DNA from: a bacterium
GTDB taxonomy: Bacteria; Electryoneota; Electryoneia; Electryoneales; Electryoneaceae
DNA length: 64,000 nt
Direction: 5' to 3'
Assembly (NCBI GenBank): GCA_963669175.1
Contig: OY769902.1
Location: forward strand, 3,776,001-3,840,000
Part shown: piece by piece, positions 51,891 to 54,721 of the stretch
Layout: the number at the start of each line of letters is the position of its first letter
How positions within the stretch are numbered: position 1 is the first letter of the stretch
The notes under the pieces: generated by a model
The model's input: the letters and a program-made list of their open reading frames with translations, nothing else
The model's database searches: none
What the model was told of the DNA's origin: nothing
Made by a program: the position numbers and the translations under genes

Positions 51891-52406
51891 CTATAACGCC
51901 TCCAACCTCATGCGTAACTGGAACATATCATGGAACCAGAACAGGCTGGAATCTTCACCCGGTCGCATCTCACCCAAAACATCACGTGCGCGGGTTTTCC
52001 AATAGGACGAATAAATACCAAGAATACGATCATTATGACGCCGCATCATAGCATAGGAAGTTGCGATCTCAGCCATTGTACCGCTTCTGCCCGGCAACGC
52101 AATCGCAACCGGGATTCGAAGCAGATGCGCCATCCTGTCCAGGTAATCTTCACAAACCTTGTATTCCTGAATCCAGGGATTCGGTTTACGCACTTCAACT
52201 GGCTCGTGCAGGAACCCAAAGGATGAGCCGCCGGCATCAACTGCGCCTTTACAGGCAGCAGCCATCGCGCCTCCATATCCCCCGGTCACAACCTGAAAAC
52301 CCAGCTCAGCCAACAAGGCGCCAACATCGAACCCCAATTCCCAGTTGATCCCGCCTTCATCCCAATCCGCACCACCAAACACGGCGACCTGCTTTGCACC
52401 GGACAT
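51891..52406 (-). CDS. LOG/SLOG-family Rossmann-fold protein
   Basis: VAVFGG, TGGYGGAM, LPGRSGTMAE (PGGxGTxxE-like). Confidence 0.85.
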   Translation of the reverse strand: MSGAKQVAVFGGADWDEGGINWELGFDVGALLAELGFQVVTGGYGGAMAAACKGAVDAGGSSFGFLHEPVEVRKPNPWIQEYKVCEDYLDRMAHLLRIPVAIALPGRSGTMAEIATSYAMMRRHNDRILGIYSSYWKTRARDVLGEMRPGEDSSLFWFHDMFQLRMRLEAL

Positions 52407-52597
52407 TTCTATCCCCCCAACCTTGTATCTCGTTCCTAAATGATCTTGTCTTTAGTACGACATTTCTCGGAAATCCTGACCGTTTTTAAATGGCGCAGCC
52501 TTTCCATGCGCCCAACACCTGTCAGTTTTAACAGAAATTTTCGCTGATTGATATCTTTCCATAGATTTCTATTTCGTTGATATCTTCCAACGATTTC

Positions 52598-52837
52598 TAT
52601 AACTGTTCTCGATTTTATTCCGACATAATAGAGATTACCGTGAAAAGGGGACGGGATCCTTTTCCTCGCACGCATTCAGAATACGCTTGCAACATTCATG
52701 GAAAAGGAAACTGTCCCCTTTTCCGTGTGATTCCTGCCCGCTCGCATGAAAAAGGGTACAGCCACCTTTCCCTAACCATATACGCATCGGACCACTTGAT
52801 TCCAGGGAAAGGAAACTGTCCCCTTTTTCCATATCCT
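52598..52837 (-). mobile_element. ~240-bp REP-cluster element (copy 2)
   Basis: Reverse-complement homolog of 31959-32199; flanked by an identical 30-mer at 52571-52600 and 52905-52934. Confidence 0.75.
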
Positions 52838-52904
52838 CTTTCCGTATCACCAATAGATCGCTCGTTGGATACTATCATGACGATTTATTTTCAAGAGTAG
52901 CTAT

Positions 52905-53025
52905 ATTTCGTTGATATCTTCCAACGATTTCTATCTCGTTGATATCTATCAAAGATTTCTATCTCATTGATATCTATCAAAGATTTCTATCTCATTGATA
53001 TCTATCAAAGATTTCTATCTCGTTG
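52905..53025. repeat. 28-bp tandem repeat (~4 copies, plus copies at 52547-52600)
   Basis: Unit CTATCTC(A/G)TTGATATCTATCAAAGATTT. Confidence 0.85.
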
Positions 53026-53027
53026 TT

Positions 53028-53236
53028 TTAGCAGGCTTTAGCCTGCTCCTCTTAGCCCCCGGCTTCAGCCGGGGGGAAGCGGCAATAATCATATAGAGCG
53101 CCCTTCAGGGTGCTTTCCTGATAAGTACTCCCAATACCACCCCATACAAGCACGCTAAAGCGCGCTCATATATTTTGTTATACCCATTCACCCGGCTAAA
53201 GCCGGGTGCTAAGAGGAGCCTGCTGAAGCAGGCTAA
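53028..53236. repeat. REPIN-like nested inverted repeat (CCCGGCTT.AGCCGGG family)
   Basis: Arms 53028-53078 and 53187-53236 are near reverse complements; inner hairpins GAGCGCCCTTCAGGGTGCTT and AAGCACGCTAAAGCGCGCTC. Confidence 0.85.
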
Positions 53237-53272
53237 CGGCTTTCAATTCAACAAAGAATCTCGTGAATTATC

Positions 53273-53398
53273 ATACTATATACTGACTTTATTTAATTTC
53301 CAAGTTAATTTCTACACTATATACTGGCCTATTTTATTTCCAGATTGATTTCTATACTACATACTGGCTTTATTTAATTTCCAGGTTAATTTCTATAC
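53273..53398 (-). repeat. Triplicated 40-41-bp 3' end of the saccharopine dehydrogenase gene
   Basis: Units 53273-53313, 53314-53353 and 53354-53394 each read (I/V)EINLEIK* on the minus strand. Confidence 0.9.
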
Positions 53399-54521
53399 CA
53401 CGCTTTAACAGCGAGGCCACCATATTGTCCGTGTCAACCGAGCGTTCCTGATACAACACGCCACGTTCCTGCAAACGACCGTCAAGAATCATATGCAGGA
53501 TGATTGTACCCGGCCAGGCCGTGCAGCGTTGCATCGAAGTGAAACCGTCCTCTTCGTCCATGTAGTCAACCATGGTGTATATAGCGCGCGCCATTTTGTT
53601 GTCCTTCTTCCCCACCACGGTAACCCGCATCAGGGTGACATCCGGCGCATTGTGCGGCAAAGAATTTGTCAGCATGGCTTCAAACACTTCACGCGGCACA
53701 ACATCGCGTCCGTTGATGTTGACAACCTCTTCCGACCGGAACCCTATATCAAACGCGAAAGTGATCAGCCTGGAATGACCAGGATAACGAAGCGTCTTGC
53801 AATCCAGCGTCTTTAACTGATCCCCGAATGTCTGGGGCAAGGTAGAGACACCACCTGACGTGTAAAAAGCTTCGTACTGACGTCCTTCAAAATCAAGTAT
53901 TTCCAGTCCGGTCAAGGATGGCTTGGTTGTAACAATGCCGTTCTCGATAACCACGCTGGGTTCGAGGTATTCATTGGTCAGCCCACGTACGCTGAACAGC
54001 AGCGAATAATTCAGCGGCGGAATCGGTTCCTGCGGTAGTCCTCCAACACGAATATTCGCGGCATGTGCTGTATCCAACTTGCTGATCCCCCCGGCAACAA
54101 GAATCCCGGCTAATCCTGGGGTCAATCCTGTATCCGGTACGATGGCGACCCCTGCTTCCTTCGCCTGGACATCAAGCTTATGCTGATTGTCCACAACTGT
54201 ATGGTTCCCACCATAATCGATGGCATTACAGTGTTCAGCAATGGCCCACTCTGTAAGTTGCTCGTTCAGCGCGTAATCAGCCGCGAACACGGCCCCATCA
54301 GCTTCACGTAGCAGTTCCCTGACTTTCGTTTCATCAGTGCAACTTACCTGAATTGTATGCGATTCATCCAGCTCCAGTTTTTCCCGCGCTATTGTCAGTG
54401 ATTCCGCCGAGGCATCCGCGATTTTCACCTCGTATCCATCTTTTCGCAGAAAATCCCAGGCCGCCGACATCCCCTGGCGTCCGCCGCCAAGCACAATAAC
54501 CTTCTTCAATGACTGAGCCAT
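53370..54521 (-). CDS. Saccharopine dehydrogenase / lysine 6-dehydrogenase family protein
   Basis: VLGGGRQG, DTGLTPG, VGGLPQ.P.PPLNY, GLTNEY, EAFYTSGG, KTLRYPGH. Confidence 0.88.
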   Translation of the reverse strand: MAQSLKKVIVLGGGRQGMSAAWDFLRKDGYEVKIADASAESLTIAREKLELDESHTIQVSCTDETKVRELLREADGAVFAADYALNEQLTEWAIAEHCNAIDYGGNHTVVDNQHKLDVQAKEAGVAIVPDTGLTPGLAGILVAGGISKLDTAHAANIRVGGLPQEPIPPLNYSLLFSVRGLTNEYLEPSVVIENGIVTTKPSLTGLEILDFEGRQYEAFYTSGGVSTLPQTFGDQLKTLDCKTLRYPGHSRLITFAFDIGFRSEEVVNINGRDVVPREVFEAMLTNSLPHNAPDVTLMRVTVVGKKDNKMARAIYTMVDYMDEEDGFTSMQRCTAWPGTIILHMILDGRLQERGVLYQERSVDTDNMVASLLKRGIEINLEIK

Positions 54522-54721
54522 GCGTACCTCTCCCTTGCAGTTTCCCCAATCTTTGAAAGTAGGCAACACAGCCCACAGGAACAATGCTGACACGAAAAAA
54601 CACTACGCGAGATAAGGCTTTCACTTCTCCGTTTATTCTATAAAATACAACAAAATAAGGCTACCTCCGAAGAAGCAGCCATGATTTAAAAGGATGTGCT
54701 GGAAGTGTTATCCGGTTTTAT

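Follow-up and report, generated by a model that had tools for sequence, protein, structure and literature searches.

The 64,000-nucleotide stretch analysed here (the window; positions 3,776,001 to 3,840,000 of contig OY769902.1, assembly GCA_963669175.1, or G000 3776001-3840000 in the genome coordinates used below) carries a gene for a saccharopine-dehydrogenase-like protein whose 3' end, stop codon included, recurs in two further copies immediately downstream. Together with the gene end these copies form a tandem array at 53273-53398, with a period of 41 nucleotides (nt) and 3.1 copies head to tail at 82% matches, which is the sole array called there by Tandem Repeats Finder (TRF). The units contain the last 8 codons, the stop codon and 12-13 flank bases of the gene, preceded by one T. 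Homologues of the gene are named lysine 6-dehydrogenase by some sources. The gene, the three units (U1 to U3) and the stretch that follows them are as follows.

53370..54593, minus strand: saccharopine-dehydrogenase-like gene, from the list of open reading frames (ORFs), with Pfam Sacchrp_dh_NADP and Sacchrp_dh_C, ending ...KRGIEINLEIK*
53357..53397, minus strand: U1, 41 nt, the working gene end: codons 400-407, the TAA stop (53370-53372) and 13 flank nt
53317..53356, minus strand: U2, 40 nt, a spare copy: 4 of 27 tail bases changed, all silently, 1 nt lost after the stop and one flank base substituted
53276..53316, minus strand: U3, 41 nt, a spare copy: ATA>GTA (I>V) and CTG>TTG (silent) in the tail, two substitutions in the flank
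53263..53275, minus strand: post-U3 stretch, like the unit start at 9/13 positions

The tail in U1 reads ATA GAA ATT AAC CTG GAA ATT AAA TAA (IEINLEIK*). That in U2, ATA GAA ATC AAT CTG GAA ATA AAA TAG, encodes the same peptide with 4 changes, all silent, TAA>TAG included, and that in U3, GTA GAA ATT AAC TTG GAA ATT AAA TAA (VEINLEIK*), has 1 silent change together with I>V in its first codon. The coding changes among the units are T>C, C>T, T>A, A>G, A>G and C>T, and outside the tail the variation comprises the nucleotide missing from U2, one G/A site and, in U3, one C/T site. A preliminary description of this DNA had reported the three-copy array with these codon readings and change counts, and TRF together with the minus-strand reading bore it out in every detail. 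The units start 41 and 40 nt apart, share their start and end points, and are separated by nothing but the gene's own 12-13-nt flank, with no foreign DNA between the copies. U3 lies 81 nt from U1 and is therefore in the frame of the gene, but a TAG intervenes (direct-repeat family D5: 45 nt, 91%, spacing 81). U1 is the actual end of the ORF, and U2 and U3 are probably untranslated spares in the 3' untranslated region. The stretch at 53263..53275 may be either the 0.1 extra copy counted by TRF or a short homology at which slippage began.

The tail is ancestral to the dehydrogenase-like gene, and the repeat was thus made from the gene end and not the reverse. The Pfam Sacchrp_dh_C match ends at residue 399 of 407, precisely at the start of the repeated tail, the orthologue from the same genus has the C-terminus KRGIDIHLAMK*, and 3 of 9 other family members read end in ...RGIRI..[VT]EK*, with equal length after RG. 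No second site for the 41-nt unit was found in the 5.45-Mb genome by blastn-short. What lies at the locus is a real and unique 41-nt triplication of an ancestral gene end, head to tail with its own flank.

The array was recovered from sequencing runs assembled separately. Runs X2 and X3 (one sample, with a single-organism label) each hold the locus in one 7367-nt Logan contig with 0 differences over 53212-53900; the two runs may be the source data of the genome, and the agreement demonstrates reproducibility with another assembler, not independence. Exact identity between any two units extends over 16 nt at most, less than the Logan word length of 31, so that the assembly graph is unambiguous. 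In run X1, a marine metagenome, a 2448-nt contig from a relative aligned to 53330-53900 with 72 differences, no gaps and ~87% identity. This contig is continuous from the gene via U1 into the coding part of U2, and the duplication therefore predates the split between the relative and the present genome. The relative has the U3 state in the U1 flank at 53367 and one silent tail change at 53376. It is represented by broken contigs, of which records 6 and 7 continue for 70 and 59 unaligned letters, and the readable array stops at 53330. Differences within ~37 letters of the piece ends seem to be unlisted, with fewer differences listed than counted, and the outermost listed difference lies exactly 38 letters from the piece end at 5 ends (both pieces of record 1 and the low end of record 7).

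Downstream of U3 the array adjoins a REPIN-like element, which has a second tandem array at its other end. Their positions, and those of another copy of the same family with its own array, are given below.

53022..53252, no strand assigned: REPIN-like element, with short G+C-rich hairpins in two inverted arms of 46 nt each, separated by 20 nt from the 41-nt array
52904..53025, no strand assigned: 28-nt tandem array, 4.4 copies, 93% matches, abutting the other (left) end of the REPIN-like element, with more units (~2) at 52542-52600
G000 894486-894706: REPIN locus with an array at 894819-894893

The inverted repeat that had been taken for a REPIN next to the array was confirmed, with arms at 53028-53073 and 53191-53236 that are 85% complementary and lie 117 nt apart. 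The element gave 145 blastn hits, corresponding to 78 dispersed loci in the genome. Border arrays were defined as TRF arrays outside the element with a period of 15-48 and at least 1.9 copies. By this measure 30 of the 78 REPIN loci have a border array within 120 nt and 27 within 40 nt, and most of these arrays abut the element ends. The same count at 40 nt gave 9/136, 5/89, 4/43, 4/49 and 11/78 for five other dispersed families (6-14%) and 106/3000 (3.5%) for random 200-nt segments starting in non-ORF DNA. The rate at REPIN loci is thus ~4 times the pooled rate of the other families (Fisher p = 1.5e-8) and ~10 times the background, a strong and family-specific association of the REPIN with adjacent local arrays. 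The units of the border arrays vary between loci, and 26 of 34 arrays are without any other match in the genome, indicating that the arrays arose in place instead of being imported. Both arrays in the present spacer belong to this set: the 28-nt array abuts the left end of the element and the 41-nt array lies 20 nt from its right end.

Inverted arm copies of the REPIN family also flank two Y1_Tnp genes at a distance of ~45-75 nt (G000 1503099-1503437 and 5361261-5361596), which, as far as the arrangement of the sequence tells, is the classical REP-RAYT layout of Y1 genes between inverted REP arms. Tandem arrays were also observed outside the REP arms of both Y1 genes (G000 1502365-1503841 and 5360617-5361956). 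One gene has arrays of 16 nt x 8.2 and 43 nt x 5.8, and the other has arrays of 31 nt x 14.2 and 22 nt x 8.3.

Duplicated gene ends were then surveyed across the 5.45-Mb genome, in which 8 TRF arrays with a period of at least 18 extend across the stop of an ORF with 150 or more codons. In a tail scan, the last 27 bases and stop of each ORF of at least 150 codons were compared with the 800 nt downstream at a threshold of at least 22/30 matches; 33 ORFs were matched, versus 1 with a reversed-query control. Rows were excluded by eye, with Pfam for 10 ORFs, before silent and non-silent differences were counted. The rows excluded were those in a CRISPR-like array (626678, 627049), ORFs built of dispersed or tandem repeats (530605, 550281, 2208831, 2243265, 2718429, 4245400, 5360897, 5394444), paralogue tails preceded by a long open frame (52051, 52513, 287276, 4391121, 4391739), and low-complexity or weak matches (632688, 803739, 804323, 1030242, 1307246, 2058692, 2059236, 4396836, 5234394). 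Eight gene-end duplicates other than the present one were kept, in genes assigned by Pfam to a T9SS-tail protein, NifU_N, DUF5131, Y1_Tnp, a HAD hydrolase, an ABC transporter, a histidine kinase and Omp85. A wider scan, extended to ORFs from 90 codons upwards and to 1500 nt downstream and filtered by codon usage, gave no convincing new locus, and its filter lost the Y1_Tnp locus. Gene-end duplicates lie beside the REPIN family of the studied locus in 2 of 9 cases, compared with 25 of 6303 ORF stops with a family copy within 200 nt (p = 6e-4); in the DUF5131 locus (L072), the duplicate is followed by a copy of this family.

Several of the kept loci were inspected individually. The end of the DUF5131 gene (L072:80-403; G000 3158281-3158604), comprising 33 coding nt and flank, recurs 108 nt downstream with an expanded TCATTTA heptamer between the copies. 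In the NifU_N gene (L071:366-720; G000 5148996-5149350), the last 34 codons and a 75-nt flank containing a REP hairpin form a tandem duplicate with a period of 177, in which the codon differences are 7 silent and 5 non-silent and the flank differs at 6/72 positions. The Y1_Tnp (RAYT-like) gene (L073:204-604; G000 1916182-1916582) has its last 37 codons and flank triplicated with a period of 142 and 95% matches, and the lone coding difference is silent. In the HAD hydrolase gene (L074:1-700; G000 1140425-1141124), ~110 nt of the gene end are repeated 422 nt downstream, enclosing a truncated copy of a miniature inverted-repeat transposable element (MITE) that has 60 full-length copies with terminal inverted repeats. 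The CRISPR-like array met in the tail scan lies outside the window at G000 ~626000-627900 and has the repeat TTCATCCCCACGGGTGTGGGGAATAC with a spacing of ~61 nt and at least 14 copies.

The reading that we consider somewhat likelier to be right than wrong is that the array at the dehydrogenase gene arose by local tandem amplification, at the REPIN border, of a 41-nt segment that by chance includes the gene's stop codon. The array would, on balance, be one of many short locus-specific arrays bordering a single REPIN-like, RAYT-associated hairpin element in this genome. Replication stalled at the hairpins, or nicking by the Y1 transposase, would be followed by slippage and give rise to duplications at the border. 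We infer that the REPIN border promotes duplications, rather than that the REPIN prefers sites beside arrays, and that the silent pattern described below reflects a small sample together with an in-gene copy limited to silent changes. The triplicated gene end is probably a small, harmless structure. The presence of arrays at about one-third of the REPIN copies suggests that host DNA, including gene termini and untranslated regions, is duplicated locally through the action of REPIN ends or of the Y1 transposase.

Minisatellites and tandem duplications arise by slipped-strand mispairing or unequal crossing-over, and the 41-nt array resembles them in its head-to-tail units, constant period and partial extra unit, and perhaps in a weak border homology (9/13 positions). 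It differs from them in that it spans a stop codon, adjoins a REPIN family enriched in arrays, and has a nominal excess of silent-site differences.

In Pseudomonas fluorescens SBW25, the excerpted account describes REPIN clusters as tandem repeats that include flanking sequence, with 16 clusters (Bertels and Rainey 2011, PMC3116915). As far as that excerpt allows a comparison, the two systems share a REPIN and a RAYT-type Y1 transposase, and the NifU_N duplicate (L071) likewise has a gene end and a REP hairpin within its unit; in contrast, the unit consists solely of flanking host DNA, with the REPIN outside it, both at the present locus and in 26 of 34 arrays. A narrow literature search, in which sources were available in part, found no description of REPIN-end arrays made of flanking host DNA alone. 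If REPIN ends do act in this way, the repeats would reshape neighbouring genes in a manner that the same narrow search did not find described.

Several observations weigh against local amplification at the REPIN border. The 41-nt array is separated from the REPIN by a 20-nt gap, the in-gene unit is the one farthest from the REPIN, and the cause between the REPIN and the arrays could run either way. The composition of the working tail is also unusual: the last 27 bases of the gene (53370-53396) have 18.5% GC, the lowest value for any of the gene's 400 in-frame windows of 27 nt (the gene itself has 51.5%), and tails as low in GC as this occur in 23 of 6303 ORF tails genome-wide. The break in GC content coincides exactly with the unit border, and the congener has G+C-rich codons in its tail. 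An A+T-rich working tail hints at exchange between the array and the gene; from composition, it would fit either an A+T-rich, slippage-prone founder sequence or past array-gene exchange.

The same holds for the distribution of differences among the units, which had been described as falling almost only at silent sites. Across the units 5 of 6 coding differences are silent, and the sixth is the conservative I>V. The 27 tail bases allow 81 single changes, of which 16 are silent (10/27 transitions and 6/54 transversions). Under a free-copy null, computed over transition weights of 1-10, the probability that the four changes in U2 are all silent is 0.0015-0.0115, and that of at least 5/6 silent changes is 0.0015-0.016. 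Under a mixed null, in which the in-gene copy also mutates but accepts silent changes only (expected silent share 0.33-0.49), the corresponding probabilities are 0.012-0.059 and 0.017-0.10. At all four coding differences between U1 and U2, U3 is identical to U1, so that parsimony puts the changes on the spare U2 and favours the stricter, free-copy null; a recent shared 81-nt higher-order origin of U1 and U3, or gene conversion, may remove this argument. With pairwise differences of 4 (U1-U3), 6 (U1-U2) and 8 (U2-U3), the middle unit is the outlier, which is not predicted by simple serial duplication. The divergence of U1 and U2 is equal in the tail (4/27) and elsewhere (2/14; Fisher p = 1.0), which is the uniformity that undirected decay predicts. 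The silent excess is thus suggestive, not decisive, and only nominally significant (p 0.0015-0.10 by null): that the copies differ mostly at silent sites stands, but the significance of the pattern depends on the null.

The other gene-end duplicates bear on the same question. Codon differences at 7 of the 8 other loci comprise 21 silent and 10-15 non-silent changes, depending on where the homology edge is drawn (the counts for the T9SS and DUF5131 loci, and those for U2 and U3 of the dehydrogenase, are from gapless comparison). The excess is clear against free decay (expected share 0.25; p <= 2e-5) and borderline against the mixed null (share 0.46; p = 0.012-0.094), and the latter result again does not sit comfortably with amplification followed by undirected decay. 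The genome-wide silent bias that the preliminary description had anticipated for such duplicates exists (21:10 to 21:15), but selection acting on the working copy would by itself account for most of this bias, and it does not show that each copy once worked. Because the working copy remains under selection, silent changes should make up about one-third to one-half of those seen in a duplicated gene end, and a silent-only pattern, with a poorly conserved tail, does not alone prove former function.

The most credible of the alternatives to amplification at the REPIN border, although an unlikely one, is that the spare units are or were working gene ends. They could be alleles of diverged strains that entered by homologous recombination in which one join was misaligned or illegitimate; by another route, unequal recombination would cycle units into the gene and, in a very large population, place the spares under indirect purifying selection. 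Such an origin would suit the 4/4 silent changes in U2 and the total of 5/6 (p = 0.0015-0.016 against free decay), the lean of the genome's other gene-end duplicates towards silent changes, the position of the outlier U2 between two similar units, as for stacked alleles of different origin, and the array-like composition of the working tail. Either spare, if swapped in, keeps the frame (IEINLEIK* or VEINLEIK*), with V found at the first tail position in 4 of the 10 relatives read, and the ~13%-diverged X1 relative has the U3 state at 53367 in its U1 flank. However, the flank of U2 (2/14) is no more diverged than its tail (4/27), and with 4 of ~5-8 silent sites changed the flank of an old allele should be much more diverged. 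The tail is less conserved than any other part of the protein: among ten aligned family members no column beyond R398 and G399 is invariant, I402 alone coming close, and 4 of the 8 tail residues differ from the congener, compared with 25% across the whole protein. Real alleles should therefore differ in residues too, and given such weak constraint silent-only differences are not strongly predicted by descent from an old working allele either. Against the mixed null, moreover, the p value is only 0.017-0.10.

Working alleles of the U2 or U3 type might also be expected in relatives, as had been proposed, and none was found. Codons of these types were absent as the in-gene end from the 10 family genomes examined and from the 23 database proteins at E <= 1e-100 in a search of 5.8 billion proteins, in which the nearest relative is 75% identical. 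Protein scans of metagenome contigs and genome contigs yielded no closer relatives, and a profile scan of genome contigs returned 11 family-level metagenome-assembled genomes only, at 53-74% identity, one of them labelled Calditrichaeota. The unit pattern occurs in 28 stretches of metagenome contigs, all of which are chance or unrelated matches by tblastn and context, with none beside the gene. The proposal that each copy once served as a functional 3' end survives at the low probability just indicated and without its integration mechanism; the silent bias does not show it.

A broader possibility, which we regard as improbable, is that REPIN borders are local amplifiers that deposit spare gene ends. 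Contraction of the arrays would move spares into the gene, resulting in indirect purifying selection, and the working tail (18.5% GC) would have been rebuilt from the array. If this is true, stacked silent gene ends beside hairpin elements would represent one general, so far undescribed process, and not integrase scars or chance.

We think it more doubtful still that the array is a functional cis element, acting as DNA or as 3' untranslated RNA. Here six same-strand copies of GAAATNAA, two per unit, would be the target of a regulator or an RNA-binding protein, and the variable sites would be unread N positions rather than silent codon positions. The motif GAAAT.AA does occur 6 times on one strand of the array and 0 times on the other, although it was defined after the data were seen, and 2 of the 4 changes in U2 fall on the N of GAAATNAA, with a third on the base immediately after the motif. 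The adjacent 28-nt units likewise start with ATAGAAATC and hold a 6-2-6 palindrome, but the 28-nt and 41-nt units show no significant homology to each other (p = 0.05-0.75). No RNA structure was predicted for the array (z = +0.70; 153/200 shuffles fold at least as well), and no Rfam match falls within it; 8 weak matches (E <= 1) lie elsewhere in 52300-53500, none at the gathering score. Promoter-like sites number 4, compared with 2.3 +/- 1.7 in shuffles, the array contains no terminator, and the genome from the same genus is without any such spacer.

The mechanism offered in the preliminary description, serial site-specific integration in which each element brought an attP-borne gene end and later lost its body, is very unlikely and, on the observations, close to refuted. 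Its precedent is prophage e14, which in the excerpted accounts supplies the 3' end of icd and leaves a 163-bp icd'/icdC fragment at the far end, with synonymous changes in icd upon excision and the copies lying at the ends of a 15-kb element (PMC6379469, PMC13626634). To the extent of these excerpts, the likeness lies in a spare 3' end of a protein gene downstream of the working end, with mostly silent differences. In e14, however, the copies are attL and attR around a 15-kb integrase element, whereas here they are adjacent and periodic, carry their own flank and have no integrase near. The absence of a visible integrase had been remarked on, and this is correct: the 10 matches to Phage_integrase (PF00589) in the genome all fall outside the window, the nearest being at G000 3498220 and 4568692, ~330 kb and ~740 kb away (the search covered this family, not serine recombinases). 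With no inserts between the copies, a constant 40-41-nt period, 12-13 nt of own flank and identical endpoints, serial integration would require three exact deletions of element bodies. The unit pattern was found in 0 viral contigs, and the genome has 0 matches to reverse transcriptase (PF00078), which also counts against serial integration.

Hardly conceivable, finally, and with nothing found in its favour, is that the array is an assembly artefact in which co-occurring strain haplotypes of one gene end were joined in series, since X2 and X3 each reproduce it unchanged in one contig, the longest stretch shared by two units (16 nt) is below the word length of 31, and the diverged X1 relative aligns gaplessly from the gene through U1 into U2.

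Further candidates were rejected for this array. A diversity-generating retroelement is excluded by the lack of a reverse transcriptase in the genome; in addition, the changes are not confined to adenines of one copy, and the peptide is unchanged. Insertion with a long target duplication has been reported for restriction-modification units in Helicobacter. Elsewhere in the present genome elements do lie between long direct target copies, as at the HAD hydrolase locus (L074) and at 4 of the 60 full-length MITE copies, which have direct flanking repeats of 28-98 nt (0/60 in controls), but no element lies between the three units of this array. An excision footprint with a long target duplication was dropped, as only these 4 of 60 MITE copies show long repeats and the REPIN is flanked by two different arrays. 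The published motif of the Ssn/NTS hairpins (HGTCWY..., as given in the excerpted part of PMC11893778) is unlike that of the present REPIN. The Ssn/NTS family was seen elsewhere in the genome, for example at ~G000 2718429.

The array lies in a spacer that also contains a third dispersed hairpin repeat, beyond which the next gene is found.

52601..52903, no strand assigned: 'hp3' block, a dispersed three-hairpin repeat of 303 nt with 136 loci in the genome, which splits the 28-nt array
51891..52406, minus strand: SLOG/LOG-like gene, downstream (ORF list, Pfam)

The distance from the stop of the dehydrogenase gene to the SLOG/LOG-like gene is 963 nt here, compared with ~30 nt in the genome from the same genus, and is occupied by the 41-nt array, the REPIN-like element, the 28-nt array and the hp3 block. 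The 28-nt array is unique to the locus, and each of its units holds a 6-2-6 palindrome, TTGATA-TC-TATCAA, similar in appearance to the operator of a dimeric DNA-binding protein. A common origin of the 28-nt and 41-nt units, which share ATAGAAATC, was considered and dropped, the proportions of shuffles reaching the local alignment score being 0.35, 0.05 and 0.75. The hp3 block is bordered by identical 31-mers at 52570-52600 and 52904-52934. The metagenomic relative in run X1 is without 52564-52925, and the insertion of hp3 is therefore recent.

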